This document shows, piece by piece, positions 2 through 34,571 of a stretch of DNA of 46,309 nucleotides (positions within the stretch are counted from its first letter, which is position 1; each line of letters starts with the position of its first letter). Below the pieces are notes generated by a model. It did no database searches, was not told the origin of the DNA, and worked only from the letters and a program-made list of their open reading frames with translations. The stretch is from NCBI GenBank assembly GCA_964364455.1, contig CAYIMR010000002.1, forward strand, positions 35,911-82,219. Direction: 5' to 3'. Source of the stretch: an uncultured Planctomycetales bacterium (GTDB lineage: Bacteria > Omnitrophota > Gorgyraeia > Zapsychrales > Zapsychraceae). Made by a program: the position numbers and the translations under genes.

Positions 2-2149
2 ATGAATTATCCGTTCCCGCCCTCCAACAGTTCCGGCCAAAATGGCTCTTCGCCGGTCCTGGAAAGCGTTGGCGCGCCTCGGATGACTACCGCGACATTC
101 GAGGAGGCCGATAAATTTTTGCGCGCCGCGCATGACGCGTTGGCCGGGAAAAAGGACTATTGGAGTCAAAAGATAGCTGCCAGCATCCGTGAGGCGTCGT
201 CTCCTGTCAGCGCCAGGAGTGATGATGCTGTGCCAGCCCTTGCCCAACGGGACACGCTTCCTGTCGCCGAGGCCATTGCCATTCAAGGCTACTCGGTTGT
301 CCCTGGCGTTGCCCCCGCCTCCAGCCCGGTGATGATGAAGACGTTCGAACGGATCGTTCAGGCGGTCAGAAGCGTTGATCGGCTGCCGGATGTGACGCGC
401 AGGACGTTCTTGCAATGGCTGGCTGCGGGAGTATTTGCCAGTGTTGTCGGTTGCGGCAAGGAAGATAAGGAGAATCCCGCGCCGCAGCCGCCGGTTTTGG
501 GTCTCATGGACACAGACGCGGGGCTAAACTGGTTGATTAATCGCATTGATCCCGCGACGAATCTGATCGCCAGTTTTGTAGATATTCCCGTTACGGATTC
601 TTCCTATGGCGTGACGTGGATTTTTAACCAAGCGCAGGCGATCGAAGCTTTTCTGGCGGCCGGTGATCTCGCGCGCGCCAGGCAATTGACCAAGCGGCTT
701 ATGGCACTGCAGGAATCCGGCGGGGCGTGGCGTAACGCTTATATCACCGCGACCGGGGCACCGTCGGCCAAAACGATTGAACATTCCCAGCGCTGGACGG
801 GGCCGAACGTGGCGGCCGGCGCCGTCATTCTGGAAGTAGCGGCCCTCACGCCTGAAGATCCATCTTATCTTGAATCCGCTCAACAGCTGGCCGGATGGCT
901 TGATCCTCTCTTTAATGATTTTGGTGATTTCGGATTTCTAAAAGGCGGCGATGAGGTCCCATGGGTCGCAACGGAACACAACATGCGCGCCATGCCTTAC
1001 TATGCGATGTTATTTGCCCAGACGGGGCTGGAAATCAATAACACGCGTTTGACGCAAACCAGCCGGTGGTTAAATGAGCGCATGTTCGCCGGCGATCATT
1101 ATGACGCAGGGCTTCTTTCCGTCAACCTAAACGATATCAACGGCGATTTCAATATAGCCACCGACATCCAGGCGATCGCCCCGATCATGGCCTTCCTCGC
1201 CGGGCTTGATCCTCTCAAATTCGCGGGCGGGCTGGACTGGCTTCTGGAATGGACAACACAAAGAGAGTATAACGGCACGACGTTGACGGGAATTCCGCGC
1301 TGGTTGACCTTGGGTTCATCGGTTTGGGCCGAAGGCACGTCGTATCTGGCCGCCGCGTTGATGCTTGTCGGGCGCGATCAGGAGGCCGTACCGTTTCTTA
1401 ACACGCTCGGGGCCATACAGGTTTCCGGCGGCGGGATTCTGGCGGCCATTGGAGAACCTTCCCAGGGCTGGCCCGGCGACTTCCGTTACTCCGCGGTGGA
1501 AGCGACCGCGCCGGCCATCGTGGCGACATTTGGCCTGCCGGAACATATTGCTGCCAAACCGTTACCCGCCAGCCCCGCCACCGGCGGGGCCAGCAGTCCG
1601 GTAACCGGCGATGATCAGGGGAAGGATGGTCCTTCCGCGTCGCGCAAGTTCGAACGGACGATCGGTCTGGCGCCGGGGGACAAGGCCTCCTCACCGGTCG
1701 TGGAAGGCAGGGGACAGGGTACAGGGTTCAGGGTTCAGGTGGCAGGTTTGAGGGGACAAGATGGAGAGCCCAGGCAATTTATCTGGGCATTGTGGTTCAA
1801 TCCGGATTATTACTGGCTGTGGGAGAAGATGCTGTTGAAACCGCACAAGAAAATCAGATGCTTGATCGTTCTCAACGTGCCGGAAGCCCTGAAGGAAGGG
1901 TCAATGATCAGGGTGCAGGGTACAGGGTACAGGGTACAGAGAAAAATTGCACGAACGACGAACGACGAGATACGAGCGACGAGTTCCCCGGTTGGCGCGG
2001 TGATTGTGGTTTCCTCTTCGCCGGTAGCTGATTGGAGTGACCCGGTCTGGGCGGCTTATCGGCTCAAGAAGGTGGAACAGGAGATGGCAAAAGCGAAAGG
2101 GGGCGATACCGGAGTTGTTTTTCATGTTTCCGGATCAGGTTCGAATTAA
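2..2149 (+). CDS. SSPV-motif protein, open at the 5' window edge; internal Tat/lipobox-like signal followed by an alpha/alpha-toroid-like domain; function unknown
   Basis: The ORF is uninterrupted from the window edge. Seven S-S-P-V motifs are encoded with varying Ser codons, which supports this frame. TRRTFLQWLAAGVFASVVGC (nt 395-454) resembles a Tat signal plus lipobox, so ATG 332 is a possible alternative start. The segment GLNWLI..AQAIEAFLAAGDLARARQL..GGAWRNAY has a helix-pair pattern typical of toroid folds. Heptamer DNA arrays at 1706-1761 and 1907-1983 are read through in frame. Confidence 0.55.
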   Translation: MNYPFPPSNSSGQNGSSPVLESVGAPRMTTATFEEADKFLRAAHDALAGKKDYWSQKIAASIREASSPVSARSDDAVPALAQRDTLPVAEAIAIQGYSVVPGVAPASSPVMMKTFERIVQAVRSVDRLPDVTRRTFLQWLAAGVFASVVGCGKEDKENPAPQPPVLGLMDTDAGLNWLINRIDPATNLIASFVDIPVTDSSYGVTWIFNQAQAIEAFLAAGDLARARQLTKRLMALQESGGAWRNAYITATGAPSAKTIEHSQRWTGPNVAAGAVILEVAALTPEDPSYLESAQQLAGWLDPLFNDFGDFGFLKGGDEVPWVATEHNMRAMPYYAMLFAQTGLEINNTRLTQTSRWLNERMFAGDHYDAGLLSVNLNDINGDFNIATDIQAIAPIMAFLAGLDPLKFAGGLDWLLEWTTQREYNGTTLTGIPRWLTLGSSVWAEGTSYLAAALMLVGRDQEAVPFLNTLGAIQVSGGGILAAIGEPSQGWPGDFRYSAVEATAPAIVATFGLPEHIAAKPLPASPATGGASSPVTGDDQGKDGPSASRKFERTIGLAPGDKASSPVVEGRGQGTGFRVQVAGLRGQDGEPRQFIWALWFNPDYYWLWEKMLLKPHKKIRCLIVLNVPEALKEGSMIRVQGTGYRVQRKIARTTNDEIRATSSPVGAVIVVSSSPVADWSDPVWAAYRLKKVEQEMAKAKGGDTGVVFHVSGSGSN
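1569..1596. repeat. family-C GC-rich hairpin element inside ORF1
   Basis: CCAGCCCCGCCACCGGCGGGGCCAGCAG, 27 of 28 identical to 21386-21413. Confidence 0.85.
1706..1761 (+). repeat. eight tandem degenerate heptamers (NNCAGGG) inside ORF1
   Basis: GGCAGGG GACAGGG TACAGGG TTCAGGG TTCAGGT GGCAGGT TTGAGGG GACAAGA. Confidence 0.85.
1907..1983 (+). repeat. two adjacent heptamer arrays (NNCAGGG x5, then ACGANNN x5) inside ORF1
   Basis: ATCAGGG TGCAGGG TACAGGG TACAGGG TACAGAG, then aaaaattgc, then ACGAACG ACGAACG ACGAGAT ACGAGCG ACGAG. Confidence 0.85.
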
Positions 2150-5590: not shown

Positions 5591-5600
5591 TATTTTGTCA

Positions 5601-5672
5601 GGAAGATGGAAAATAGAAGATTGAAAATCGATTGTCGATTAACATCCATCTTCCATTCTCTATCTTCTATCC
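5601..5672. repeat. heptamer-word inverted array (GAAGATG/GAAAATA words) between mutL and mutS
   Basis: Central AATCGA-ttg-TCGATT. GAAGAT blocks at 5602-5607 and 5616-5621 pair with ATCTTC at 5662-5667 and 5648-5653. The right arm runs into the last mutS codons. Confidence 0.7.
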
Positions 5673-8278
5673 TCAAGGATTTCTTTCAATTCCCCTAATT
5701 TATTCATCGCCTCCAACGGCGTCATGGTATCAATGTCCATCGCCCGGATCGTTTCTTTGATGGTTTCCGCCATTGGGTCGACGGGCATGTGGAACATATC
5801 CAGTTGTTTTTCCGGCGCCTGTTCGCCTTTAAGATTTTCTTTCAAGTCATTTTTCAATTCTAATTGCGTCAATATGTGTTTGGCGCGGCCGATGATCGCC
5901 TTGGGGATGCCGGCCAATTTAGCGACGTAGATGCCGTAGCTGTCATCGGTCGAGCCGGGGATGATCTTGTGCAGGAAAATGACCTCATCTTTCCATTCTT
6001 TGACCGCGACGTTATAGTTTTTTGCGCCGGAGGCGCACCCGCCTTTGGCGGATACATTTCTGTCCGCAAGCGCCGTTAACTCATGGAAGTGGGTCGCGAA
6101 AAGCGTTCGCGTTTTGGTCGTTTGCAAATGTTCGGCGATCGCCCAGGCGAGGCTTAATCCGTCGTAGGTGCTCGTTCCCCGGCCGATCTCATCAAGGATG
6201 ATGAGGCTGCGGTTGGTCATGTTGTTGAGGATATCCGCCGTTTCGTTCATCTCGACCATAAAAGTGCTTTGGCCTTTGTTGATATCATCGTGCGCGCCGA
6301 TGCGCGTGAAAATTTTGTCGACGATCCCGATATGGGCGGAGGAGGCCGGGATAAAACTTCCCATCTGGGCCATGATGGTCAGGATGGCGGTTTGCCGGAT
6401 ATAGGTGGATTTCCCGGACATGTTCGGTCCGGTCAGGACGATCAGATGATTTTCTTCGCCATCGAGCAGGGTATCATTGGGCACAAAAGGACCGGCGAGT
6501 ATTTTTTCAACGACCGGGTGGCGGCCGTCTTTGATCTCCAGCAACGTATCATCGGCGATTCCCGGGGCAATGTAGCCCGGCGATTGGGCCAGCACGCGCA
6601 GGGAGTAGAGGGTATCGAGTGTGGCGATGTTTTGGCAAAATTGATGAAGCCGCGCCGAATGCGCCAGGACCTCCTGCTGGATTTCCTGCACGAGCGCGTT
6701 CTCGATCTTGGAGATCTTTTCTTCGGCGGTAAGGATCTTTTCTTCATATTCTTTGAGCGCGGGCGTGATGTATCGTTCGCCGTTAACGAGCGTTTGTTTG
6801 CGGATATAATCCTGTGGCGCAAGATGCTGGTTCGCCTTGGTGATCTCGATGTAGTATCCGAAAACCTGGTTGAACCCGACTTTAAGCGAATTGATCCCCG
6901 TGCGTTCGATCTCGTTTTCCTGGAATTTTTTAAGCCACTGCCGTCCGTTTTCTTGGATATCACGCAAGCTATCAAGTTCAGCGTGATATCCAACGCGGAT
7001 GATCTTTCCTTCGGGATGGGCGAGAGGGATCGTTTCATTGACGGCGCGGTCCAAATATTGGCGCAGGTCAGGGATGTCTTCGCAATCAAACAGGGAATTC
7101 CGGGACATGACGGGGTTGACCGCGTTCTGGATTGCGGGCAAAAGCGCTAACGTATTGCGGATCGCCAAAAGGTCTTTGGCGTGGGTGTAACCGCAACTTA
7201 ACCGTGAGATGTTTTTTTCAAGGTCTGGAATTTTATCGAGAAGATCTTTCAACTGCCGGCAGACTTCAGGATGGGCGCTTAACAGCCGGATAGCATCCTG
7301 GCGTTCGATAATATCCGGCACGTTTTTCAAGGGATGCGTCAGCCAGAACCGGAACATCCGCCGGCCCAGCGGCGTCAAAGTATGATCGAGCGTTTCGATG
7401 AGCGTGTCTAATTCCAGGCCGCGCGCGGCCGCCGGGGAGATAAAGACATAATCGTCGTCGTTGTACAGGGCGATACGGTCGATGTGTCTGAGCGGCTGTT
7501 TGTTCATCTCCCGCAGATATTCCAACAGCGCGCCGGCGCTTGAGGTGGCGCTGGTGAGTTCTTCGATGCCAAATCCATGAAGGTTGTGGACGGCAAAATG
7601 TTCGCACAGTGTTTTTCTGGCGATATCCTGGTTGAAGGACCATTCTCCGTACGGGCTTAAGGCGATATTTTTCGCGCGTAAAAGCGGATGTTCAAAAATA
7701 GGTTTGATTTTCGCTTCGGGTTCTTCCCCCTGCGGGTAAACGCATTCACAAATGGGGAGCTTGGCGATGAGTTCCGCCAGCCGCCCGTATCCCAGGGGAT
7801 ACTGGTTCGTTTGAATGGTCCCGCTGGTCGGATCGGTGAACGCAACTCCGATATTCTTTTCGTTGGGGCTTAAACACAACAGATACCGCGCGTCGCTGTT
7901 GTGCTCATCGAGATAGGTGCCGGCGGTGATGACGCGGATGACGTCGCGCCGGACAATGCCCTTGGCGAGCGCGGGCCGCCCATGGCGAGCCTCGCCTTCG
8001 GCGGGGTCTTCCATCTGTTCGCAAATGGCGACTTTGTAGCCGGATCTGATGATCCTGGCGATGTAATTGTCGGCGGCGTGCCAGGGCACCCCGCACATGG
8101 GGATCTTGTTCGAAGAACCTTTGCCGCGGGAGGTCAAAACGAGATCAAGCGTCCTGGATGCCAGCTTGGCATCATCATAAAACATCTCATAGAAATCGCC
8201 GAGGCGAAATAAGAGGATGCAGTCTTTGTGCTTCTCTTTTATAGAGCGGTACTGCGCGAGCATGGGGGTTTCGGACAT
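5660..8278 (-). CDS. mutS: DNA mismatch repair protein MutS
   Basis: MLAQYRSIKEKHKDCILLFRLGDFYEMFYDDA at the N-terminus, Walker A GPNMSGKSTYIRQ, STFMVEM and DEIGRGTSTYDG. Confidence 0.97.
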   Translation of the reverse strand: MSETPMLAQYRSIKEKHKDCILLFRLGDFYEMFYDDAKLASRTLDLVLTSRGKGSSNKIPMCGVPWHAADNYIARIIRSGYKVAICEQMEDPAEGEARHGRPALAKGIVRRDVIRVITAGTYLDEHNSDARYLLCLSPNEKNIGVAFTDPTSGTIQTNQYPLGYGRLAELIAKLPICECVYPQGEEPEAKIKPIFEHPLLRAKNIALSPYGEWSFNQDIARKTLCEHFAVHNLHGFGIEELTSATSSAGALLEYLREMNKQPLRHIDRIALYNDDDYVFISPAAARGLELDTLIETLDHTLTPLGRRMFRFWLTHPLKNVPDIIERQDAIRLLSAHPEVCRQLKDLLDKIPDLEKNISRLSCGYTHAKDLLAIRNTLALLPAIQNAVNPVMSRNSLFDCEDIPDLRQYLDRAVNETIPLAHPEGKIIRVGYHAELDSLRDIQENGRQWLKKFQENEIERTGINSLKVGFNQVFGYYIEITKANQHLAPQDYIRKQTLVNGERYITPALKEYEEKILTAEEKISKIENALVQEIQQEVLAHSARLHQFCQNIATLDTLYSLRVLAQSPGYIAPGIADDTLLEIKDGRHPVVEKILAGPFVPNDTLLDGEENHLIVLTGPNMSGKSTYIRQTAILTIMAQMGSFIPASSAHIGIVDKIFTRIGAHDDINKGQSTFMVEMNETADILNNMTNRSLIILDEIGRGTSTYDGLSLAWAIAEHLQTTKTRTLFATHFHELTALADRNVSAKGGCASGAKNYNVAVKEWKDEVIFLHKIIPGSTDDSYGIYVAKLAGIPKAIIGRAKHILTQLELKNDLKENLKGEQAPEKQLDMFHMPVDPMAETIKETIRAMDIDTMTPLEAMNKLGELKEILEDRR
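6023..6051. repeat. two small GC-rich hairpins in frame inside mutS
   Basis: TGCGCC-GGA-GGCGCA (6023-6037) and CCGCC-TTT-GGCGG (6039-6051). They encode the AKGGCASGA segment. Confidence 0.6.
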
Positions 8279-9760: not shown

Positions 9761-10729
9761 CTGATTGTTTATCTGGACGCCCGGATGCTGCGCCGGCTAT
9801 GCCGGCGCAGCCGTCGCGATGGGCGTTTGTTCAATGACGTATTTGCCGTTTCCCCGGTTTTAACCGTTATTATCGCGGGGTTAATTTTATTTCATCTTTT
9901 TGTCGTTGAGAACTCTCCGCAAAACCTGCCACAATTCCTTTTTGTCGCTTTGTTGCCGATCTACCTTTTGCGCCGGATACGTTTTCTAAAATCCGTTGGT
10001 GGCAGGGACAGGCCTAGGCCTGTCCCTACGGAGACCGAAACCCTGGTTTCCGACGCGTATAACGTCATCCTGATCTGGTTTCTGGCCATGGTCGTCACCG
10101 GCGCTTTTTTCAAAAGCGCTGGTGAAATATTCCCGGTATTTGAATCCCGAATGGGACAACTGCTTCTGTCCGCGGTTTTTTCCTCGGCCATCGCGCTTGT
10201 CCTGATCGCCAGGGCGTCACAAAAATTTTCTGATCAAGGATTTCTTTACAATGCCGGATTGCGTAAAGGCGAGAAATCCGTCATGGAGGTGTTCGTTGTC
10301 CCGGCGCTGGTCGGGGTGTTTTTTGCCGTCGTTTCTTCAGCGATCATCTGGCTGCGCCACGTGCAGCCGGTGACGCCTTTAAGCGCGGTCGTTGCCGCGA
10401 CGGATTCGGTTTGGTTGTTCGCGATATTTTTGGCCATGGCGATCCTGGTGGCGCCTTTGATCGAAGAGATCATCTTCCGGGGATATTTTTTCCACGTCAT
10501 CCACCGGGCCAAAGGCGAGCGGTCCGCCATTTATGTTATTTCCCTGGTGTTCGCTTTTCTTCACGTCGGGCAATATTGGGGGGACTGGCCCGCGATTGTG
10601 ATGGTCATGCTGCTGGGCTTTGCCTTGGCGATTTTACGGGCCCGGACGGGAACGACGCTGGCGAGTATCATTGCCCATTACGCATATAACGCCGGAGTGA
10701 CCATTATTCCATTCTATATGGTCAAATAG
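9731..10729 (+). CDS. CPBP-family intramembrane glutamic endopeptidase (CAAX protease-like)
   Basis: EEIIFRG, FAFLH and HYAYN motifs in a polytopic membrane protein. ATG 9734 is the likely start. It contains a palindromic insert at 10004-10031. Confidence 0.85.
   Translation: MMAIVLLGLALIVYLDARMLRRLCRRSRRDGRLFNDVFAVSPVLTVIIAGLILFHLFVVENSPQNLPQFLFVALLPIYLLRRIRFLKSVGGRDRPRPVPTETETLVSDAYNVILIWFLAMVVTGAFFKSAGEIFPVFESRMGQLLLSAVFSSAIALVLIARASQKFSDQGFLYNAGLRKGEKSVMEVFVVPALVGVFFAVVSSAIIWLRHVQPVTPLSAVVAATDSVWLFAIFLAMAILVAPLIEEIIFRGYFFHVIHRAKGERSAIYVISLVFAFLHVGQYWGDWPAIVMVMLLGFALAILRARTGTTLASIIAHYAYNAGVTIIPFYMVK
10004..10031. repeat. family-A GC-rich palindrome in frame inside the CPBP protease gene
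   Basis: AGGGACAGGCCTAGGCCTGTCCCTACGG, translated as RDRPRPVPT in a loop between TM segments. Confidence 0.9.
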
Positions 10730-10770: not shown

Positions 10771-10794
10771 GCTATCTACTTGGATAGCAATAAT

Positions 10795-10870
10795 AAGTCG
10801 TAAGCGATAAGTCGTAAGCAAAGAATTTGATATTTTTTTGGCTTACCACTTATGGCTTGCGACTTACGAC
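10795..10870. repeat. heptamer-word inverted array (AAGTCGT/AAGCGAT words)
   Basis: AAGTCGTAAGCGATAAGTCGTAAGC pairs with GCTTACCACTTATGGCTTGCGACTTACGAC. Confidence 0.75.
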
Positions 10871-10878
10871 TAAATTTC

Positions 10879-11112: not shown

Positions 11113-12598
11113 AAAATGTATTTTTATTTTGATGATGGCCATTTGGGCCGCGGGTGGGACCCCTACGGGCCGCGCGCGGGCGCAATCTTTGAACGCGGTT
11201 TCAAACAGCGTCTCACAGCCGGATGGCCCTGAAACGACGACGTCCGCTGAAGTGACTGCCGCGAAAGTCGTTAAAACAACACTCGACACACTGGATGTCC
11301 AGGAAATGGACATTAAAGAGGTCCTCAAGAGAATAGCTTTTCAAAGCGGCCTTGAGATCATTTTAGACGAAGATATCAGCGCGCGGGTGACGATCTATTT
11401 GAAGGACGTCGATGTTTTTGACGCTTTGCGGATCATCCTGGATACCAATAACCTGGCTTACAGCCAGGATCCTGGAGAGACAGAAGGCAGGCAGGCCGCG
11501 GCCGTGCATGTGATGACGGCCCGGAATTTCGAGGGCCGCTTCGGTTATCCGTTCAGCCAGAAGATCCAAACGAAGATCATCCCGCTTTCCCACGCGCGGC
11601 CTGAGAAGGTAAGCGCGCTTTTGGACAAGATGAAAGGCGCGGCCGGCAAGGTCATTTACAGCGAGGGCACCAGATCGTTTATTCTCATCGACGCTGCGCA
11701 ACAGCTCACGTCCATGAGCGATCTTGTCCGGGAGATGGACGTTCCCGTGGAATCCAAAACGTTTGATCTGCGTCACGTAAAAGCCAGGGACATGGCCCCG
11801 CGTATCCAGGAATTCTTGACCAGGAACGTCGGGAGGGTCGAATTCGGCGAACGCGAAACGGCCTTGACCATCGATGACACGCCGGCGCGGCTCGTGGAGA
11901 TCGGTAAACGTATTGAAGAGCTCGACAAACCCGCCAAGGAGGTTTTTCTTGATGTCAAGATCCTTCAGATCATCCTGAACGACGAAAACCGCCAGGGAGT
12001 TGACTGGGAGGCGATCGTTTCCGATTATCAGAGTTTTCCTTTCACGGGTTTTGAGGGAAAAGGGGCCGGCATTCTAAGCGTTGGAACTGTTTCGGAAGAA
12101 GATTATGTCGTGCTCCTGGATGCCTTGGACACCGTCGGCATGCTTAATACGGTATCGAATTTGAAAATGACGGCGGGTGCCGCGGGGCGTAATGAAATTT
12201 TGATCCGGGGCAAGGACTTGCTGGCGGATTTTGAGCCGCAGGAACCGCAGGAGGGGTTGACGGGCAAAACGGAAGTGCTTTATGGTGTTGGTTCCAGGCT
12301 GGGAGATGACGCGCAGATCATGTTGGAGATCCAGCCACAGGTGCTGGGTGAGTCTGTCCCGCTCCGCGGGACCTACTCGGCCGGTGAGAAAAAAGGCCTA
12401 ACGCTCAAACTTCAGGAAGGCACCACGGTTGTCGTCGGCGGGCTGTTCAAGAGCGTTCATGTTGAGGCAACACGCAAGATCCCCTTACTCGGCGATCTGC
12501 CGTTATTGGGGTTCGCGTTCCGGCTGCAGGGACAACGCCTGCGGGAAACGGAGATCATCGTCTTTTTAACGCCGAAGGTGGTTGTGAAAGAAAAGTAA
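11102..12598 (+). CDS. secretin (short PilQ/GspD-family outer-membrane channel)
   Basis: A signal peptide is present. The N-domain reads DVQEMDIKEVLKRIAFQSGLEIILDEDI. The C-terminal secretin domain reads GTTVVVGGLF..KIPLLGDLPLLGFAFR..TEIIVFLTPKVV. It overlaps the merR stop by 11 nt. Confidence 0.85.
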   Translation: MMIRKCIFILMMAIWAAGGTPTGRARAQSLNAVSNSVSQPDGPETTTSAEVTAAKVVKTTLDTLDVQEMDIKEVLKRIAFQSGLEIILDEDISARVTIYLKDVDVFDALRIILDTNNLAYSQDPGETEGRQAAAVHVMTARNFEGRFGYPFSQKIQTKIIPLSHARPEKVSALLDKMKGAAGKVIYSEGTRSFILIDAAQQLTSMSDLVREMDVPVESKTFDLRHVKARDMAPRIQEFLTRNVGRVEFGERETALTIDDTPARLVEIGKRIEELDKPAKEVFLDVKILQIILNDENRQGVDWEAIVSDYQSFPFTGFEGKGAGILSVGTVSEEDYVVLLDALDTVGMLNTVSNLKMTAGAAGRNEILIRGKDLLADFEPQEPQEGLTGKTEVLYGVGSRLGDDAQIMLEIQPQVLGESVPLRGTYSAGEKKGLTLKLQEGTTVVVGGLFKSVHVEATRKIPLLGDLPLLGFAFRLQGQRLRETEIIVFLTPKVVVKEK

Positions 12599-12726
12599 GA
12601 AGTAAAGAGTGAGAAGTAAGAAGAGTAAAGAAAAAAGGTGGATAATGTAAAACTGAGGTAATCAGGCAGGCAAAATCCAAACCGGCGTTATTTTTTTTAC
12701 TTCTTACTTCCTTCTTCTTACTTCTA
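12594..12726. repeat. heptamer-word inverted array (AGTAAGA words) with a ~65-nt loop
   Basis: AGTAAGAAGTAAAGAGTGAGAAGTAAGAAGAGTAAAG pairs with TTTACTTCTTACTTCCTTCTTCTTACTTCTA. Confidence 0.75.
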
Positions 12727-12735
12727 ACTTTTACC

Positions 12736-13854
12736 GTGTATATGCTTCGAAATCATTTTTCAATTTGGCTGCTTATCTTGTCCCTCGCGCTGTTCGCCAG
12801 CGGCTGCGCGACAGTCCCCGGTGGGCGGATGACGGATTCCTCCCCGCGGCCAAAGGCTCCCCGCGGGGAGGGAGCCTTTGGCCGCAAGCGGATCTACCTT
12901 AAGGACCTGTGCGACCGGTATTCGCTCGCTTGGCAATGGGACCATATTTCCCAGACGGTGGACCTGAAAATAGACGGCATCAATGTCCGTCTTCTGGTCG
13001 GTAGCAGCGTCTTGTTGCTGGGCAAGGAGCAGGTCAGGCTGAACACTCCGGTTTTGATCGACCAGAGTTCGGTGATGCTGCCCTATGATTTCAAGGCAAA
13101 GGTGATGGACAGATTCCCAGATTTATTTACCGCGAAGGCGCCATCACGATCGCGGGTCACGCGGGTCCCGCGCGTGTTCCGCAAGCTCCGGGAAGTGGTC
13201 ATCGATGCCGGTCACGGCGGCAAAGATCCCGGCGCCATCGGCGTCACAGGCATGAAGGAAAAGACGGTCGTTCTTGATGTTGCCCAGCGGCTAAAAAAGT
13301 TACTGGAGGCCGCGGGGGTCAAGGTGACGATGACCCGCAAAGACGATACGTTCATTTCCCTGCAGGAGCGTACCGAGATCGCCAGCCGATCCAAGGCGGA
13401 TCTGTTTATCAGCATCCACGCGAACGCGAGCTCCGCGCGCAGCGTCCACGGCGTGGAGGCGTATTGTTTGAAGGATTTAGGGACACTTGAGAAAAATGAG
13501 GCCCAGCGCCAGTCGAACCATAAATTGATGTTCAAAAATCTGGCCATGAAAAAAGGTTCTTTGAACCTTGAGGATATCGTTGAGGATATGCTTTATACGC
13601 ACAAGCAGAGCGTTTCTCCAACACTGACGGCAAAACTTGCGGGCCGGGTGGCCCAGACGGCCAAGGCGAATGATCGGGGCGATAAGCAGTCGCGTTTTTT
13701 TGTCCTGCGCAACACGTTGATCCCGGCGGTGTTGGTGGAGATCGGTTTCGTGACCAATCCTAAAGAGGGGCGGTTACTGAAGACCGGCGATTACCGGCAG
13801 AGAATCGCCGAGGGACTGGCGAACGGGATTTTGGGATACAGGGATGGGAAATAA
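12736..13854 (+). CDS. N-acetylmuramoyl-L-alanine amidase (Amidase_3), lipoprotein
   Basis: Lipobox LFASGC, VVIDAGHGGKDPGAIG and DLFISIHANAS. It contains a 39-nt palindromic insert at 12847-12885. Confidence 0.9.
   Translation: MYMLRNHFSIWLLILSLALFASGCATVPGGRMTDSSPRPKAPRGEGAFGRKRIYLKDLCDRYSLAWQWDHISQTVDLKIDGINVRLLVGSSVLLLGKEQVRLNTPVLIDQSSVMLPYDFKAKVMDRFPDLFTAKAPSRSRVTRVPRVFRKLREVVIDAGHGGKDPGAIGVTGMKEKTVVLDVAQRLKKLLEAAGVKVTMTRKDDTFISLQERTEIASRSKADLFISIHANASSARSVHGVEAYCLKDLGTLEKNEAQRQSNHKLMFKNLAMKKGSLNLEDIVEDMLYTHKQSVSPTLTAKLAGRVAQTAKANDRGDKQSRFFVLRNTLIPAVLVEIGFVTNPKEGRLLKTGDYRQRIAEGLANGILGYRDGK
12847..12885. repeat. family-B 39-nt hairpin element in frame inside the amidase gene
   Basis: CGGCCAAAGGCTCCCCGCGGGGAGGGAGCCTTTGGCCGC with a 14-bp stem. 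Translated as RPKAPRGEGAFGR. Confidence 0.9.
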
Positions 13855-14698
13855 CAATCCAATAGGTGTTTTCGATTCCGGCTTGGGCGGGTTGACCGTG
13901 GTCAAGGAATTGATCCGGCAGCTGCCGCAAGAGAGCATCGTTTACTACGGCGATACCGCGCGCGTGCCTTACGGAACCAAGTCCAGGGAATCCATCATCC
14001 GCTTTTCCCATGAGAACACGCGGATCCTTTTAGAACGTGGCGTCAAAATGGTCGTTGTGGCGTGTAACACTTCTTCGAGTTACGCGCTTGTCCAATTGCG
14101 CAAGCATTTTCATTTACCGATCGTGGGCGTTATCGATCCCGGCGCGCGCAAGGCCGCGGAGGTGACGCGTAACCGAAAAGTGGGGGTCATCGCCACGCCG
14201 GCGACGGTCAACAGCCGTTCCTACGCCAAGGCCATTTTCCGTTACGACCGCGCGATTCAAGTGTCCAGCCAGGCGTGTCCTTTGTTCGTTCCATTGGTGG
14301 AGGAAGGCTGGCTGCGCAACCCCGTGACCACGGCCGTGGCCCGCGAATATTTGAAACCTTTACAAAAGACTGGTGTTGACACGCTGGTCTTGGGATGCAC
14401 GCATTATCCGTTGCTGAAAAGCGTTCTCAAAGACGTGATGGGAGCGAAGGTGGCCCTGATCGATTCCGCCACGGAGGTTGCCGCCGAGGTCAAACGTGTC
14501 TTGCAGGACAGACAACTATTGCGCCCGTCCGCCGTTAGGCTCCCTTCGGCCAAAGGCTCCCCGCGGGGAGGGAGCCTTTGGCCGCGGGGAGGAGGAAGAC
14601 GGGCGCAATACAGCTTTTTGATCAGCGACCGGCCGCAACAGTTCGAAAAAACGGCCAGGGAGTTTTTGGGGTACAATATCCGGGCGGTAAAAATCTAA
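13844..14698 (+). CDS. murI: glutamate racemase
   Basis: IGVFDSGLGGLTV, VVACNTSS and LGCTHYPLL. It contains the same 39-nt palindrome at 14547-14585. Confidence 0.93.
   Translation: MGNNNPIGVFDSGLGGLTVVKELIRQLPQESIVYYGDTARVPYGTKSRESIIRFSHENTRILLERGVKMVVVACNTSSSYALVQLRKHFHLPIVGVIDPGARKAAEVTRNRKVGVIATPATVNSRSYAKAIFRYDRAIQVSSQACPLFVPLVEEGWLRNPVTTAVAREYLKPLQKTGVDTLVLGCTHYPLLKSVLKDVMGAKVALIDSATEVAAEVKRVLQDRQLLRPSAVRLPSAKGSPRGGSLWPRGGGRRAQYSFLISDRPQQFEKTAREFLGYNIRAVKI
14547..14585. repeat. family-B 39-nt hairpin element in frame inside murI
   Basis: Identical 39 nt on the same strand, but read in a different frame as SAKGSPRGGSLWPR. Confidence 0.9.
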
Positions 14699-14704
14699 AT
14701 TGTT

Positions 14705-14772
14705 ACGTCGCTCGTCGTCCGTATCTCGTATTTCGTTACGAGATACGAGATACGAGCGACGAAATACGAAAT
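14705..14772. repeat. heptamer-word hairpin (ACGANNN words) between murI and queD
   Basis: Hand pairing of 14705-14736 with 14738-14772 gives about 25 bp with 1-2 mismatches or wobbles. Confidence 0.85.
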
Positions 14773-14773
14773 C

Positions 14774-15136
14774 ATGTTTGAGCTTTCCGTCAAAAGTCAT
14801 ATCGCCTCGGCCCATTTTCTAACAGGATACCAGGGCCGGTGCAAGGACCTGCACGGCCACACCTGGCACATCGAGGCCGTGATCGCCGGCGAAGAGCTGG
14901 ACAGAATCGGCATGGTGGCGGATTTCGCAGGTCTTAAGAAACAATTGAACGAATTCTTGATGCCCCTCGACCACGTGTGTCTGAATGATCTGGAGTATTT
15001 CAAGCGCAACAATCCGACGACTGAAAATATTGCCCAGTATGTCTACCAGAATTTTGCCAAGGTGATCGCTCCGTTGCAGATCAAAAGGGTCCAGGTGTGG
15101 GAATCGGAAACATCGAGTGTGGTGTATTACGAGTAA
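14774..15136 (+). CDS. queD: 6-carboxy-5,6,7,8-tetrahydropterin synthase
   Basis: SAHFL..CKDLHGHTW..GMVADFAGLK..LDHVCLND..NPTTENI matches the QueD/PTPS family pattern. Confidence 0.9.
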   Translation: MFELSVKSHIASAHFLTGYQGRCKDLHGHTWHIEAVIAGEELDRIGMVADFAGLKKQLNEFLMPLDHVCLNDLEYFKRNNPTTENIAQYVYQNFAKVIAPLQIKRVQVWESETSSVVYYE

Positions 15137-15197
15137 GTCACAAGGTCACAATGCCACCAAGTCACCTGTTTGACTTGTGACCTGGTGACCTGGTGAC
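15137..15197. repeat. heptamer-word hairpin (GTCACNN words) between queD and queC
   Basis: CAAGTCA-n6-TGACTTG core, with GGTCAC/GTGACC outer pairs. Confidence 0.8.
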
Positions 15198-16619: not shown

Positions 16620-16698
16620 GTCACAAGGTCACAACGTCACCAGGTTACGCGGGTGACAGGTGACAGGTGACAGGTGACAGGTGACGTGGTGACCTGGT
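16620..16698. repeat. heptamer-word hairpin between queE and queF, with five perfect GTGACAG units
   Basis: GTCACAAGGTCACAACGTCACCAGGTTAC, loop gcgg, then (GTGACAG)x5 GTGACGTGGTGACCTGGT. Confidence 0.85.
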
Positions 16699-17952: not shown

Positions 17953-18591
17953 ATGACTGAACTTATCATCGCCACCACCAATCCCGGCAAGCTGCGGGAG
18001 ATCAGGGAACTCCTCAAAGATTTGGATCTTGAGATCACTTCCTTATCCGATTATCCGGGCGCGCCAAAGGTCGAGGAAGATGGCAAGAATTTCGCCCAGA
18101 ACGCGCTCAAGAAAGCGGCTACCATCGCTTTGTACACGGGCAAACTCACCCTGGGAGAAGATTCGGGATTGGAAGTAAGGGCATTAGGAAATAAACCGGG
18201 AATTTATTCAGCCCGTTTTTCTCTGCCCAAGGCCAATAAATCCTCGGGCAGAGCCTGCTCGGCCGGGGCAAACGCGGTGGATAAAAGAAATAACGCCAAA
18301 TTGCTGCGGTCGCTTCGCGGCGTGTCTTTTAAAAAACGCCAGGCGCGTTACCGCTGTTTCGCCGCCCTGGTGGACGGTCAGCGCATCATCGACGTCGTGA
18401 GCGGCTCCTGCGCCGGGCTTATCGCGCTTCGCGGCCGCGGCAAAAACGGCTTCGGATACGATCCGCTGTTTTTCCTTCCGCGATACAACAAAACTTTCGG
18501 AGAGCTGGACCCGGCCATCAAAGCCAGGATCAGCCATCGGGCGAGAGCATTAAGCAAAGTAAAGAAAGTGTTAAAGAAATACATCGGATAG
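17953..18591 (+). CDS. rdgB: dITP/XTP pyrophosphatase (Ham1/RdgB family)
   Basis: LIIATTNPGKLREI, EDSGLEV and FGYDPLF..ISHRARAL. The track start at 17872 lies in the repeat array, so ATG 17953 is preferred. Confidence 0.9.
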   Translation: MTELIIATTNPGKLREIRELLKDLDLEITSLSDYPGAPKVEEDGKNFAQNALKKAATIALYTGKLTLGEDSGLEVRALGNKPGIYSARFSLPKANKSSGRACSAGANAVDKRNNAKLLRSLRGVSFKKRQARYRCFAALVDGQRIIDVVSGSCAGLIALRGRGKNGFGYDPLFFLPRYNKTFGELDPAIKARISHRARALSKVKKVLKKYIG

Positions 18592-18594
18592 TTG

Positions 18595-18656
18595 GTATCT
18601 CGTATCTCGTCGCTCGTATCTCGCACGAAATACGGTATACGAGATACGAAATACGA
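18595..18656. repeat. heptamer-word hairpin (ACGANNN words) between the convergent rdgB and AsmA-like genes
   Basis: GTATCTCGTATCTCGTCGCTCGTATCTCG pairs with CGAAATACGGTATACGAGATACGAAATACGA. Confidence 0.8.
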
Positions 18657-21600
18657 TTAAAAGATTCCCTTCAATATCGTCCCAATCCCCTCCTTCAACC
18701 CATCCTTGAGGATATCCGTCGTTTTTTCCAGGATATTGAAGGGAAGGGTCTGGACTTTGTACTGCGGATTGCGCAGGGTTCCGGTGAGCTTTATGGAAAC
18801 ATAATCTCCCTGGGACAGCAAAAGCGAAGGGATCTTTTTAAGCGACCTGGATTCGGCGGCGACCAGTTCCCCGAAGGTCGGCGCGATGTCGAAGTTGATG
18901 TTCCCCTCAAGGTTGATCCATCCTTGTCCTTTAAGACTGATGCTGCTGCTGTTCATCGTGGCGTCAGCGGTCGTGATCTTCCCGTCGGCCATGGTAAAAT
19001 TTGCCTGCCCGTCGGTAAAGACGACGTCCTTGAATTCCGGGATGAGCAGCACATCCGGAAGACCATCCAGGATGTTCCAGCGAAAAAGATGTCCTTTTGT
19101 GACGGACAACGAGCCGTCGCCTTTCCAGCGCGTTGGGTTTTGGGGATCACCGCTTAGATTAACCAGCGCGGAAAGACGTCCGGCCAGGAATTCGTTCTTC
19201 GGCAGGTTACTCTCTCGTAAAACGGCCAGGTCCATGCCTTCCAGTGATCCGGTCAACCGCGCGATGGGCTCATCCTGCGCCAGGTCCATCGAAGAAATGA
19301 GGTTGAGGTTGCCGTTATAGGCGCGGCCCGTGAGGTTGCACTTGCTGATGTGCCGGTCGCGCTGCGCGTATTCGATGGCCCCGTCATCGAGGTGAAACCT
19401 GTTGAGGGATACCGTCGGCGCGCGGGCGGTAAACGTCAGGTCCCAGTCCTGCCAGTTTTTCGGCCTTCCTTTAAACAGGCCTTCACCGGAGAACGTGCCG
19501 ACGGGCTGGAGTTTCACGAGACGGTCTTTAAGCGCGGACGGGAAGGCGCTTAAGTCCTCGAGGCTCAAGGTGAACGTTCCGCGGATGTCCATATCCGGCT
19601 CGTTTCCTTCCAGCAGGTGCACGTCGCCCCTGATGTCCAGCGAGCTGTTGAAATATTTTCCCGTCAGGAAAATAATTTGAAAGGCCTGGTTGAGGATCTT
19701 GAATTGGGCTGAGGCGTTGAGATCTCGCGAGGCCACCTGGAGGTCCACGACCGGCCGCGAAAAATCAGCGAACTGGCCGTTGAGGGTGTATTGGTTTTTT
19801 TGGTAAAGGCCCTGGAGATTTTTCCAGACGACCAGATCTTTTTGATAGGCGATCTCACCGGAAATATTCGTGATATCCCCTGAAATTTTTGGGCTGGCGA
19901 TCGCCGCGTTTTGGAATTTGGCGTTGAACCGGACGTCCGCGGCGGCGGGGTTCTGGACGTCTCCGATGTAAGAGGCCGCGGCGGCGGCCGTTCCGGCAGG
20001 GGCGATGTTCGTTTTTTCCGTCAGAACCGGAAAGGCCGTGAACAGTTTTTGCAGGTCAAGGTTGTCGGTTTTCGCCCGGACGTTCAAAACGGGCCTGGAA
20101 AAGTTGATCAAGGATCCGGAGAGCAGGATATCGGTTCCCTGCGTCTGAAAAGTGAACTGGCCGCTGGCAAGCCGGTTGGTCTCGATCTGGACCGTCCCGC
20201 GTATTTTCTCAACCGACCGGAGGTATGGGACATTTTTGAGGACCGCGTCGGTAAAATGCAATTCGCCGAAGTAGAGGTATTTATTGTCCTGGCCGTTGGG
20301 GTCGTATTGACAGGTCAAGTTCCCGTCGGGGTGCCCTTCCAGGGCGATCTGCGGCGTCAATTGCAGATGAGCATTCTTGAAATCCAGGTCTGACTTGACC
20401 TCGCAACCGTCTTGTTCACAGACCAATAAGGTCTGTGAACTTTTGAAGTCCGCCTGCAGGTATCTATCCGGGCCCCAATCCATACGCGCGCCGGATAATT
20501 GCAGGTCGCTTAAGATGCCGAGCTTTCCTTTGTCGAACGCGAACTTTGTTTTTTGCGTCGTCAGATCCCCGCGCAGTTTATAGTCAACGGAAAACGCCGC
20601 ATCCATCTCGTTGATGTTCAGGGCCGCTTCCAGGCGGATGCCACGCTCATCGTTACGCATGACAAAGTTGTCGGCCCGCAAGGCATGTGCGCGGATACCT
20701 TTGTTTTCCCCCGTGACCACGCGCGTTTCTTCCAGGATGAGGCTGCCATGGGCGGACATTCCCTGGGGAGCAATATCCAGCGATTTTATCTCGGCGCTTA
20801 TCTTGCCATTGACCGAACGTCCTTGCGCGAACGTGATAAAAGTTGAGTCAGATTCCAGATGCCCGCTGGCCGTCCAGCGCCCGTCCTGGCGGGTCAGGGA
20901 AACGCCGGTTGCCCGCGCCGAAGTGACGATCCTTTTCTCCCCCGCAAGCTCCACGTCCATCTTGTCGATGGTCACGCCGCCCTGGGCCTGCAGCCCGTCG
21001 CGTTCCCAATTCAGGTTCAAATCCAGCGCGGTGACGATACCGTCTTGAAAATGGATATCCTGCGGCAGGGGAATAAGGGACAAATATTGGGCCAGCGCGA
21101 TACGCTCCGCCATGACGCGGGTGGAAAGCTTGCGCGATTCGAGGTAATAATTCCCTTTGATGTTGATGGTGGCCTCCCTGCGAGGGATTTTACCTCCCAG
21201 GGTAAAGCGGACGATCTTGTTGAGCGAGAACCGGGCGTCGAGCTCGATGCCGCTGATGACCTCATGAAAATTTTCCGGTACGGTCCGGTCGGTGTAGGCG
21301 ATCTCACCGTCTTTGACGATGATTTTGCGCGGGGCGATGATCCAGGAGCTTTTGGTTTTGCCGGAGGTTGAAGATTTGTGGTCCTCCAGCCCCGCCAACG
21401 GCGGGGCCAGCAGATCGGAGAAATTCCATCGGGTCGTTTCTTCACGCGTGATCTGCGCGAACGGGCCGCTCACGCGTATCGACGGGATCAGGATGATCTT
21501 TTTCTGGAATACCGGCGCCAGCAGAACATGGAAGGTGACCTCATCGGCCTGCAGAAAGACGCGCGCGGGATCGTCTTTCTGGTAGACGGTCAAGTTACGC

Positions 21601-29024: not shown

Positions 29025-29768
29025 ATGATCCTTATCTTTAAACACATCGAGATCGAAGGTCCGGAAACGATCGGCCAGTTTTTTGTTGATGAGGGTTTTG
29101 AGATCAAGATCCTTGGCCTGCATAAAGGGGATCGCCTTCCTGGAACATTTGATCATTTGGATGCCGTGATCAGCCTAGGCGGCCCGATGAATGTGTATGA
29201 GGAAGGCAAGTACCCGTTTTTAAAGGAAGAAAATGTCTTTTTGCAGGGGATTCTGGAGCAGGGGATTCCGTTTATGGGGATCTGTCTGGGAGGCCAGTTG
29301 CTCGCCAAAGCTTCCGGCTCAAAAGTGGGACGCTCACCGGAAAAAGAGATCGGATTTGCGCCGGTCCAGTTGACGGCCGCTGGTAAGAAAGATCCGTTAT
29401 TTCAAGGTGTTGCGGGACCATTGGACGTATTCCAATGGCATGAAGATATGTTTGAAGTTCCCGCCGCTGGCACGCTGCTGGCTTCATCGTCGGTGTGTCC
29501 TAACCAAGCGTTTCGCGTGGGCAAATGCGCTTACGGCGTGCAATTCCATATCGAGATCACCGATAAAAGCATCCGGGAATGGTCTGATGAATATTTTGAA
29601 GCAGGGGACCGGACATTTGCCGAAAAGAAGAAGGCGATGCTCGAGGATTATCAGAAGAAAAAAGACCAATTCCACGGCGTTGCTGATAAAATATACATGA
29701 ACTTTCTGGATATAATCTTGCAGTCACAAAGTCACCAGGTCACCAAGTCACCGGAAAAAATCGGGTGA
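29025..29768 (+). CDS. class I glutamine amidotransferase (GuaA-like GATase1 domain protein)
   Basis: PFMGICLGGQLL (nucleophile Cys) and GVQFHIE (His/Glu). The last ~15 codons read into the GTCAC array. Confidence 0.85.
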   Translation: MILIFKHIEIEGPETIGQFFVDEGFEIKILGLHKGDRLPGTFDHLDAVISLGGPMNVYEEGKYPFLKEENVFLQGILEQGIPFMGICLGGQLLAKASGSKVGRSPEKEIGFAPVQLTAAGKKDPLFQGVAGPLDVFQWHEDMFEVPAAGTLLASSSVCPNQAFRVGKCAYGVQFHIEITDKSIREWSDEYFEAGDRTFAEKKKAMLEDYQKKKDQFHGVADKIYMNFLDIILQSQSHQVTKSPEKIG

Positions 29769-29792
29769 CGGGTGACTTTGTGTCTTTGTGAC
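29723..29792. repeat. heptamer-word hairpin (GTCAC words) between the GATase gene and nadE
   Basis: GTCACAAAGTCACCAGGTCACCAAGTCACC pairs with GGGTGACGGGTGACTTTGTGTCTTTGTGAC. The GATase stop codon lies in the right arm. Confidence 0.8.
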
Positions 29793-31474: not shown

Positions 31475-31530
31475 TATTACATATTGAAAGTTGTACTTGC
31501 AATATGTAAATTATATGTTATGCTGTTTTT

Positions 31531-32703
31531 ATGATCAAACGCGCCCTGGAAACAACGTTAAAACAAGCGGCCAGGCAGTATCCGGTCGTGCTCTTGACGG
31601 GCCCCCGGCAATCCGGGAAAACGACTTTGTGCCGGGCAGTTTTTCACGGCAAGCCCTATATTTCTTTTGAAAATCCCGATTACTGCGAGTTTGCCCGGAA
31701 AGATCCACGCGGTCTCCTGGACAAATACGGTGAAGGCGCGATTTTTGACGAAGTCCAGCGTTGTCCCGATATCCTGTCTTACCTCCAGGGGATTGTGGAC
31801 GAGCATCCCGGTAACGGCCGATATATCCTCACCGGCAGCCAGAATATCCTCCTTTTAAAATCCGTCCAGCAATCTTTGGCGGGGCGCGTTGCCATTTTAA
31901 GACTGCCGCCTTTTTCTTATAGCGAAGCGGCCAAAACTTTAGCGTCATATTCTTTGGACAAGATTTTGTATGCCGGCGGTTATCCCCGTATTTTTGACCA
32001 GAAGCTTGAGCCCGCCGATTACCTTCGCAATTACACCGCCAGTTATCTTGAGCGCGATGTGCGGGAGATCATCCACGTGAAAAATCTTTCCAGTTTCCAG
32101 AAATTTTTGAAGCTCTGCGCCGGGAGGGTTGGACAGATATTGAATTTATCGAGTATCGGCAATGACCTGGGGATCTCTCATACGACGATCAGGGAATGGC
32201 TGTCAGTTCTGGAAACCAGCTATATTGTCTATCTTTTGCCGGCGTATTACCGCAACTTCAAGAAACGTATCGTCAAGTCGCCCAAATTATATTTTCATGA
32301 TGTCGGACTGGCTTCCTATCTTTTGGGGATAGAAAGTTCCGAATATATGAGCCGGGATTCGTTAAGAGGAAATTTATTCGAGAATTATGTGGTAACCGAG
32401 ACAATCAAACATTTTTGGTCCCACGGCCGCAATGCCCCGCTTTATTTTTTCAGGGATAATATCGGTAATGAGGTGGACCTGCTTATTGAAAAAGCGCGTC
32501 AGGTCGCCGCCATCGAGATCAAGGCGGGGCAAACAGTCAACAGTGACTGGTTTAAAGGGCTGGAATATCTCAAGCGGGTGATGGGGAAAACGGTTTTATC
32601 GCGGCATCTGGTTTACGCCGGCAAAGAGGAATACGTAAGGGAAGGGACACAGGTCCTGTCCTTTCGCGGCGTCAGCGGGATGGTTGGATCGATAGAAAAA
32701 TAG
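31531..32703 (+). CDS. AAA_14/DUF4143-family ATPase
   Basis: Walker A GPRQSGKTT, DEVQRCPD (Walker B-like), LTGSQN and a C-terminal DUF4143-like region. Confidence 0.85.
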   Translation: MIKRALETTLKQAARQYPVVLLTGPRQSGKTTLCRAVFHGKPYISFENPDYCEFARKDPRGLLDKYGEGAIFDEVQRCPDILSYLQGIVDEHPGNGRYILTGSQNILLLKSVQQSLAGRVAILRLPPFSYSEAAKTLASYSLDKILYAGGYPRIFDQKLEPADYLRNYTASYLERDVREIIHVKNLSSFQKFLKLCAGRVGQILNLSSIGNDLGISHTTIREWLSVLETSYIVYLLPAYYRNFKKRIVKSPKLYFHDVGLASYLLGIESSEYMSRDSLRGNLFENYVVTETIKHFWSHGRNAPLYFFRDNIGNEVDLLIEKARQVAAIEIKAGQTVNSDWFKGLEYLKRVMGKTVLSRHLVYAGKEEYVREGTQVLSFRGVSGMVGSIEK

Positions 32704-32837: not shown

Positions 32838-32942
32838 AACGAATACAAGCGCCGTCAGGGGCCGCCGGGGGTCAAAATTATCCCCCGCGCCTTTGGGAAA
32901 GACTGGCGCCTGCCGATCACGAATAAATACCGGGAGAGTTGA
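32838..32942 (+). pseudogene. orphan diverged copy of the last 34 codons plus stop of nadE
   Basis: Aligns base for base with 31370-31474 at about 90% identity. The 11 single-base differences are mostly at third codon positions (2 amino-acid changes: I to V, T to I). It encodes [34 protein letters not shown]. Confidence 0.8.
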
Positions 32943-33269: not shown

Positions 33270-33294
33270 CAAGTATGCAATGCAGGAGGAAACT

Positions 33295-33672: not shown

Positions 33673-33673
33673 T

Positions 33674-34570: not shown

Positions 34571-34571
34571 A

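Follow-up and report, generated by a model that had tools for sequence, protein, structure and literature searches.

How does one and the same 39-nucleotide (nt) hairpin come to lie in two genes of cell-wall metabolism and to be translated in each of them in a different frame? The question is raised by a 46,309-nt stretch of DNA from an uncultured bacterium of the phylum Omnitrophota (contig CAYIMR010000002.1; the whole stretch is called the window here), in which the hairpin occurs in the gene for an N-acetylmuramoyl-L-alanine amidase lipoprotein and in the glutamate racemase gene murI. Comparison of these two copies with orthologous sites, independent assemblies and further copies in other genomes indicates that the 39-mer is probably the core of a 63-nt, GC-rich, dispersed palindrome found in a clade of groundwater Omnitrophota. 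This would be a selfish element resembling the repetitive extragenic palindromes (REPs) and the Rickettsia palindromic elements (RPEs), lying next to a TTC trinucleotide, tolerated in protein loops and reshaped by mutational processes peculiar to palindromes.

The 39-mer, CGGCCAAAGGCTCCCCGCGGGGAGGGAGCCTTTGGCCGC, has two exact matches in the window, both on the plus strand (Table 1). No third copy is present in the window at up to three mismatches, and 100 dinucleotide-preserving shuffles gave no match. The sequence folds into a perfect 14-bp stem (GGCCAAAGGCTCCC / GGGAGCCTTTGGCC) with an 8-nt loop, the stem reaching 15–16 bp when adjacent C/G pairs are counted. It begins at codon position 1 in the amidase gene, where it encodes RPKAPRGEGAFGR, and at codon position 2 in murI, where it encodes SAKGSPRGGSLWPR. 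Scanning, folding and translation therefore agree with a preliminary description of this DNA, which had reported an identical repeat with a 14-bp stem in the two genes and a difference of one codon position between them. The amidase matches Amidase_3 (PF01520, E 3.5e-56) over residues 154–365 and Cu_amine_oxidN1 over residues 57–124, carries the lipobox LFASGC with Cys24 as the lipidated residue, and has syntenic orthologues in the related loci L002, L004 and L005. MurI matches Asp_Glu_race in Pfam (E 6e-25) as well as glutamate racemases in the PDB (best E 4e-68); 120 orthologues were listed, and Omnitrophota orthologues are numerous. The naming of homologues and of the single genome hit assigns the organism to Candidatus Omnitrophota.

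Both segments are absent from close orthologues (75–89% identical). Specifically, the 21 residues AVRLPSAKGSPRGGSLWPRGG are missing from 18 of the 19 aligned MurI homologues (59–89% identical), in which ...LLR.S joins directly to G.R...F.ISDRPQ, and the sole carrier, 99% identical, belongs to the same population. Likewise, SPRPKAPRGEGAFG is missing from all three syntenic amidase orthologues. These orthologues come from three related genomes (L002/L003, L004 and L005) that share the syntenic block secretin, amidase, murI, queD, queC, queE, queF, rph and ham1, and in the DNA alignment against L002, L004 and L005 there is a clean gap of 63 nt in murI and of 42 nt in the amidase gene. The two segments are thus lineage-specific insertions, as the preliminary description had supposed.

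It is also worth asking whether the repeat is an artefact of assembly or, alternatively, a peptide motif or linker that has been selected as a protein-level module; we regard either as very improbable. The peptides are all rich in Pro, Gly and Arg, and beyond this only the initial coincidence speaks for such readings. However, RPKAPRGEGAFGR and SAKGSPRGGSLWPR differ and derive from different element strands and frames, and one further copy, in the locus L001 described below, is non-coding. In addition, both copies recur unchanged, base for base, in two Hainich groundwater assemblies, ERZ1292631 (56-kb contig, coverage 67) and ERZ1292636 (85-kb contig, coverage 85), both of which encode the exact MurI protein; their contigs differ from the window nearby, yet keep both copies identical. 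A third Hainich assembly, ERZ1292620 (2.3-kb contig, coverage 27), contains the murI copy within a MurI that is 99% identical. With both copies confirmed in two further assemblies and the murI copy in another, the repeat is not an assembly artefact, and on frame, non-coding copy and independent assemblies we reject the chimera and the protein motif alike. What is conserved is a DNA palindrome that recurs across sites while its peptides change with frame and strand.

The repeated unit is longer than 39 nt, since flanks common to the copies define an element of 63 nt in which the core is enclosed by an outer 5-bp stem, CTCCC/GGGAG. The unit has a G+C content of 75% and a folding energy of −51 kcal/mol (z = −4.8). 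The amidase gene holds 44 nt of it, with a net gain of 42 nt. The left flank of this copy, TCCTCCCCGC, matches the right flank in murI, GCGGGGAGGA, when reverse-complemented, and a profile search of the amidase copy (nhmmer, 63-nt profile) scores 48.8 bits on the minus strand versus 34.6 bits on the plus strand. The amidase copy is therefore truncated and lies in the opposite orientation to the murI copy; the two seem co-oriented because the palindromic core masks the true orientation. Hence the earlier statements that the element measures 39 nt and lies on the same strand in both genes hold for the shared, identical core, but the inserts themselves are 63 nt (murI) and 42 nt (amidase), and as a whole element the amidase copy belongs to the minus strand.

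Copies also exist outside the window. A scan of one genome per species with the 14-nt arms, a pattern that a looser one might have outperformed in number of copies, gave one extra copy, in the Omnitrophota metagenome-assembled genome JACROV01 (locus L001). This copy shares with that of murI the arms plus the flanks ...CCGTTAGGCTCCCTT and GCGGGGAGGAG..., and it is intergenic: a gene for a coiled-coil protein ends on one side of it, a lacI-type gene lies on the other, and the distance to the preceding open reading frame (ORF) is 25 nt. With the six-frame peptides of the element as query, a RumA/TrmA-like RNA methyltransferase (P0121) was found that contains SSSPRPKAPHGEGAFGRREPNG, and its DNA (L061) has the full 63-nt unit in reverse orientation inside the methyltransferase gene. 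The 63-nt family therefore occupies four independent sites in at least three genomes: the amidase gene, murI, the RumA-like gene and the L001 spacer. The search for further copies, as suggested earlier, thus places the element beyond the window, once within a gene in another frame and once between genes. A scan of metagenome contigs for CCAAAGGCTCCC-N4-12-GGGAGCCTTTGG gave 53 loci (L008–L060) that we rejected as family members, their flanks being unrelated; a large share of them represent one recurring locus, and several lie on contigs labelled as human gut metagenome. As the arm pair is found with unrelated flanks, the arms alone are not diagnostic for the family.

With the flanks of all four copies oriented alike, the loops read TCCCCGCG in the amidase gene, TCCCCTCG in L001, TCCCCGTG in L061 and CGCGGGGA in murI. 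Read as its reverse complement, the murI loop matches the amidase loop exactly; it is thus inverted. That the two window cores are identical follows from their common descent from the 63-nt family, and loop inversion, or gene conversion between copies 1.7 kb apart, best accounts for the plus-strand loop orientation that they share.

The RumA-like site, followed in an alignment of 22 orthologues and in the DNA of five, shows the element in several states, from empty through full to truncated and remnant, along with a longer variant (Table 1). In L067 an internal mismatch of the arms, TTC:GCG, has become a perfect TTC:GAA. Two more variable insertion points are present among close relatives in this protein family (L061, L069 and the alignment), after GFTP and after AFDCW, and the AFDCW insert of L069 has a folding energy of −32 kcal/mol.

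Table 1. Positions of the host genes, element copies, adjoining trinucleotides and other repeats. Coordinates are those of the window; a slash marks the point of insertion.
Feature	Position	Strand	Sequence or remark
N-acetylmuramoyl-L-alanine amidase lipoprotein gene (host gene 1)	12736..13854	+	Pfam, lipobox, synteny
Glutamate racemase gene murI (host gene 2)	13844..14698	+	Pfam Asp_Glu_race, PDB matches, orthologues
39-mer, copy 1	12847..12885	+	in Amidase_3 lipoprotein gene
39-mer, copy 2	14547..14585	+	in murI
Full 63-nt unit	14532..14594	+	CCGTTAGGCTCCCTTC + GGCCAAAGGCTCCC + CGCGGGGA + GGGAGCCTTTGGCC + GCGGGGAGGAG; encodes MurI residues 230–250
Core hairpin left arm, murI copy	14548..14561	+	
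8-nt loop, murI copy	14562..14569	+	CGCGGGGA; flipped with respect to the loops of the other three
Core hairpin right arm, murI copy	14570..14583	+	
Truncated element copy, amidase gene	12840..12883	−	CTCCCCGC + arm + loop CGCGGGGA + arm; encodes S36–G49 (SPRPKAPRGEGAFG)
TTC, amidase site	12837..12839	+	GGATTC/
TTC, murI site	14595..14597	−	CGTCTTC/; GAA on the plus strand, abuts the CTCCTCC end
TTC, RumA-like gene site			AAATTC/
TTC, L001 site		−	GGCATTC/
RumA-like site, L066			empty: GAAAATTC/CGCGATG
RumA-like site, L061			full, 63 nt
RumA-like site, L067			42-nt form; segment between two GGGAGCC direct repeats missing
RumA-like site, L068 (same peptide in P0126)			21-nt remnant CTCCCGAAGGGAGCCTAATGG
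RumA-like site, L069			84-nt variant; arms differ from the standard by matched changes on both sides
mutS hairpin inserts	7976-8005, 6032-6055		
mutL hairpin inserts	5456-5476, 5171-5218		
ham1 hairpin insert	18223-18264		
CPBP protease gene hairpin insert	9794-9811		18 nt
Secretin gene hairpin insert	12353-12376		
asmA-like gene hairpin insert	21375-21404		
Two-copy palindrome, mutL	4830-4859		perfect 30-mer, starts GTAG
Two-copy palindrome, CPBP/Rce1-like protease gene	10004-10031		28 nt identical to mutL, AGGGACAGGCCTAGGCCTGTCCCTACGG
Two-copy palindrome, ORF 2..2149	1566-1601		CCAGCCCCGCCAMCGGCGGGGCCAGCAG
Two-copy palindrome, asmA-like gene	21383-21418	−	89% identical to the preceding over 36 nt
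Inverted spacer repeat arrays	1708-1939, 10793-10871, 12593-12734, 14703-14769, 15135-15197, 16620-16698, 18595-18656, 29722-29792, 44417-44523, 46089-46118		period 7 or 8
Direct repeat, nadE 3′ end	31370-31478, 32838-32946		109 nt, 87% identical
DUF4143/AAA_14 ATPase gene	31531..32703		between the 109-nt repeats
Low-GC block	33000-40000		GC 0.41-0.46 vs ~0.53 elsewhere

The position of the element relative to its surroundings may not be arbitrary. At all four independent sites, the end CTCC(TCC)CCGC is directly preceded by TTC, and both empty sites that allow a close comparison have this trinucleotide already, reading GGATTC/GCG in the amidase orthologues and AAATTC/CGCG in the RumA-like gene of L066. 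No target-site duplication is seen where filled and empty sites were compared (amidase, murI, RumA), and a single TTC is left after insertion. This pattern would fit insertion 3′ of a short target of the kind used by the insertion sequence (IS) group IS200/IS605 and by REP-associated tyrosine transposases (RAYTs); with four sites, it counts as a lead rather than proof.

The element appears to be tolerated in coding DNA. Four of the six frames of the 63-nt unit are open, the remaining two meeting TAG or TAA from a GTTAGG motif. It is read forward in murI, the amidase and RumA-like genes share one reverse-strand frame, and every in-gene copy has a length divisible by three and uses one of the four frames without stops. 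The window MurI was modelled with AlphaFold2 (mean predicted local distance difference test score, pLDDT, 87; predicted template modelling score 0.85); in this model, residues 231–250 are the only long stretch with pLDDT below 50 and are modelled as coil between helix 208–222 and strand 256–260; the insertion point therefore maps to a low-confidence loop, in keeping with the earlier expectation of a surface loop. The conserved C-terminal segment of MurI continues in frame after the hairpin. In the amidase, the insert (S36–G49) lies 11 residues past the lipobox cysteine and ahead of both Pfam domains. All 13 of the syntenic genes examined are intact ORFs, hence each insert is a multiple of three. 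Coding copies would accordingly be translated as disordered loops rich in Pro, Gly, Arg, Ala and Ser, with little harm to the protein. Removal at the RNA level or ribosomal bypass was considered and judged unlikely, as the inserts keep the frame, contain no stops and break none of the 13 genes.

The family is one part of a wider hairpin habit of this lineage. We surveyed the 13 syntenic genes of the window against L002, L004 and L005 for in-frame, lineage-specific insertions of at least 5 residues with well-aligned flanks. The 13 insertions found have a median folding z-score of −3.1, and 8 of them are strong hairpins (z ≤ −2.5), versus 5.6% of 250 control coding segments (Mann–Whitney p = 6e-7); the relatives, too, have hairpin inserts of other sequence in ham1, the secretin gene and queC. 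Stems that pair perfectly over 9 bp or more occur at 14 loci in the window versus 2.45 in shuffles, and those of 11 bp or more at 8 versus 0.2. The dominance of hairpins among in-frame insertions in this clade is a pattern more surprising than the 63-nt element itself.

Several observations stand beside this survey. The genes mutL and CPBP/Rce1-like protease, 5 kb apart, share an identical 28-nt stretch of perfect palindrome. The CPBP copy is positionally conserved with symmetric changes in L005 (AGGGACAGGTCGCGACCTGTCCCT) and L004 (ATAGCGACAGGTTCACCTGTCGCTAT), so that the mutL copy would be a recent copy of the window-specific version. In a third two-copy palindrome, the asmA-like copy constitutes a 10-residue lineage-specific insert. 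Together, mutL and mutS (3749-8278) hold at least five hairpin segments (Table 1), a load that recalls the reported bias of intragenic REPs towards DNA-repair genes. A MurI homologue from a more distant Omnitrophota (P0027; L065 3001-3852) has in the same loop an unrelated 14-residue insert, GESPRRTGRPAYLS, likewise with GC-rich hairpins in its coding DNA. Nearly all intergenic spacers of the window contain a pair of inverted arrays, built of tandem repeats with a period of 7 or 8, that jointly form a long imperfect hairpin, the repeat unit being private to each spacer (CAGGGTA, TAAGTCG, AAGTAAG, TACGAGA, GGTGACA and others). The murI–queD spacer of L004 is only 1 nt long, so that at least this array is specific to the window lineage. 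Elsewhere, the 3′ end of nadE is duplicated beyond a DUF4143/AAA_14 ATPase gene, as if left by the insertion of a gene, and horizontal acquisition may account for a low-GC block with genes for an ArsR-type regulator, an ArsP-like permease and a MacB/FtsX ABC transporter.

The abundance of hairpins invites the suggestion that each of them, including those of the 63-nt family, was made locally by template switching, through fold-back or inverted duplication, with no mobile or dispersed element involved. Template switching is known to homogenise the arms and invert the spacers of inverted repeats (PMC5941160, PMC8604942, PMC8794818), which is what the arm correction in L067 and the loop flip in murI resemble. 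Within the window, moreover, the 18-nt CPBP insert is an inverted copy of the adjoining ancestral GCTGCGCCGGC, and the palindrome at 10004-10027 has remained palindromic in three lineages while centre and arms changed symmetrically. Against this, the murI and amidase orthologues have neither arm, so that no arm was available for local copying, and one 63-nt sequence, non-palindromic flanks included, recurs at four unlinked positions spread over at least three genomes, for which independent local origin is impossible. Local template switching is thus contradicted for the 63-nt family, and as a general account we think it improbable; it is nonetheless a good explanation of several unique hairpins, and some of those outside the family look, from their sequences, to have been made in place.

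A second suggestion is that the hairpins are selected functional structures of mRNA or DNA, serving in processing, stability or pausing or as binding sites for dimeric proteins. Perfect complementarity is kept at orthologous positions in lineages about 20% apart in DNA, with changes in both arms (the CPBP palindrome and L069), and the intergenic L001 copy lies just 3′ of an ORF, as REPs do. Such symmetric changes can, however, be explained by arm-to-arm correction without selection (PMC5941160). The presence of the hairpins is also patchy among close relatives, with decayed remnants; the host genes are unrelated; and across 14 inserts there is no consistent asymmetry between sense and antisense folding energies. 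The hairpins show no T-run signature of terminators, and at gathering thresholds no Rfam family matches anywhere in the window. The terminator reading in particular was rejected, as no T-run follows the hairpins and the consensus scan is not enriched. We hold a functional role of this kind to be about as improbable as a purely local origin.

A dispersed, selfish palindrome accounts best for these findings, and its history might be pictured as follows. The hairpin element would be copied into unrelated sites directly 3′ of TTC and without target duplication, presumably through a single-strand hairpin intermediate. One route could be an HUH/Y1 transposase of the IS200/IS605–RAYT type encoded elsewhere in the genome; another could be copying from an existing copy primed by microhomology. 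Y1 transposition specifically is a possibility to which we give rather less than even weight. Copies would survive where they keep the frame in a flexible loop or linker. After insertion, judging from the states now observed, the loop may invert (murI), mismatched arms may be corrected to perfect complementarity (L067), and internal deletion between short direct repeats may leave 42-nt and 21-nt remnants (amidase, L067, L068).

Several observations weigh against this reading. Neither the window nor any fetched locus, L001 included, encodes a Y1_Tnp/RAYT or another transposase. The known independent sites number only four, two of them in the window and both intragenic, and nhmmer with the 63-nt profile gave no additional copy in 136 kb of related sequence. 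A search of 5.8 billion proteins with twelve concatenated element-encoded peptides (E ≤ 1) returned only two proteins with a full copy, at poor sensitivity; because the correction for composition bias lowered the scores (a 100%-identical 22-mer gave 32 bits), the search yields no usable estimate of copy number. The copy number may therefore be low, unlike that of classical REPs or RPEs. In a rough neighbour-joining tree of the RumA-like proteins, carriers are interleaved with empty sites, which implies that either precise loss or insertion at this one site occurred more than once. REPs bear an unpaired terminal tag, GTAG or CGTC with the variants GYAG, GYRG, GTRG, GTMG and GTGG (PMC3733652), and the motif next to the stem here is instead GTTAG (murI, L001, L061), ATTAG (L068) or GTCAG (L069). 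The TTC could be shared microhomology, as in microhomology-primed copying, rather than a recognised target. Finally, translation through the hairpin, the simplest reading, is deduced solely from conservation of the reading frame.

These findings bear on a larger question. Palindromic repeats that survive in genes are rare and have been described chiefly in Rickettsia and a handful of REP-rich bacteria. Here a compact element can be followed at defined sites that are empty, filled, or occupied by truncated copies or remnants, with a candidate TTC target and with signs of loop inversion and arm correction, in an uncultivated phylum represented in many metagenomes, which makes it possible to test by comparative genomics how coding hairpins spread and decay. 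One can imagine a genome-wide process in this clade by which perfect palindromes arise, spread and are retained in coding DNA and which is the main source of in-frame insertions, although we think this on balance doubtful. Such a process may be a new class of TTC-targeting hairpin element or a very active form of template switching that copies palindromes between unlinked loci; if it exists, the 63-nt family, the mutL/CPBP 28-mer, the palindrome (28-mer) shared by ORF1 and asmA, and the heptamer-repeat hairpins of the spacers would be products of one mechanism. The findings also show that length variation of MurI, MutS, MutL, Ham1, QueC and the secretin in this lineage stems for the most part from hairpin DNA rather than from selection acting on the proteins, which is relevant to annotation, to alignment-based phylogeny and to the interpretation of "lineage-specific loops".

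Comparison with known systems helps to place the element. The mobile GC clusters and byp elements of yeast mitochondria are likewise GC-rich hairpins of 30–60 nt that invade coding sequence. Ribosomes bypass byp elements, so that the frame need not be kept, whereas the inserts of the 63-nt family all keep the frame without stops, pointing to translation. The element does not behave as a miniature inverted-repeat transposable element, as there is no target duplication at the amidase, murI or RumA sites and no parent IS is known. With IS200/IS605-derived elements and REPINs, which depend on HUH Y1 enzymes (TnpA, RAYT), it shares the hairpin feature, a fixed short adjoining sequence (here TTC, at four of four sites, a small sample for which microhomology is an alternative) and the absence of duplication; in contrast to them, it consists over its full 63 nt of a single hairpin, where they have two subterminal hairpins or a REP doublet. 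Inverted repeats made by template switching and the coding palindromes of Nematomorpha mitochondria (PMC6649704) resemble it in being perfect repeats in coding DNA with homogenised arms, inverted spacers and two-arm changes over time. However, those repeats are local or lie in conserved regions of proteins, and the 63-nt sequence is dispersed to unlinked genes and adds residues.

RPEs, in the summary of PMC10969869 (after Ogata et al. 2000), are palindromes inserted in frame into ORFs, with families RPE-1 to RPE-10 of about 100–150 bp from AT-rich genomes and one conserved peptide per family. The element is like them in being palindromic, in lying in frame within unrelated housekeeping genes where its read-through peptides are compatible with the fold (three genes, two element strands or frames, in a loop or linker), and in occurring between genes as well. 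It is unlike them in that it is 63 nt long, has 75% G+C, is read on both strands and appears unrelated to them in sequence, and in that its host is a free-living or episymbiotic member of a groundwater phylum and not Rickettsia. Judged by the description of RPEs, its size, G+C content, host and lack of an Rfam match place it outside those families. The parallel with RPEs drawn in the preliminary description therefore holds for behaviour, namely in-frame insertion into ORFs, and fails for family membership.

With REPs the parallels go further. REPs are short, GC-rich, dispersed stem-loops found mainly near the 3′ ends of ORFs but also within them, where they add about 7–30 residues. Those inside ORFs are most frequent in Opitutus terrae, of the Planctomycetes–Verrucomicrobia–Chlamydiae (PVC) group, and in R. 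conorii, often affect DNA-repair genes and add 20–30 residues (Di Nocera et al. 2013, PMC3733652). Omnitrophota are related to the PVC group, to which O. terrae, the host richest in intragenic GTAG REPs, belongs, and mutS and mutL have several hairpin inserts here. The core hairpin measures 36–39 nt, and the whole repeated unit, at 63 nt with a 14-bp core stem and an outer 5-bp stem, is longer than REPs, which are typically 20–40 bp with stems of 6–9 bp; its known copy number is also very low, and no RAYT is present in the sequence examined. The element is thus a member of neither the REP nor the RPE family and is RPE-like in behaviour only, and the closest behaviour described so far is that of the intragenic REPs.

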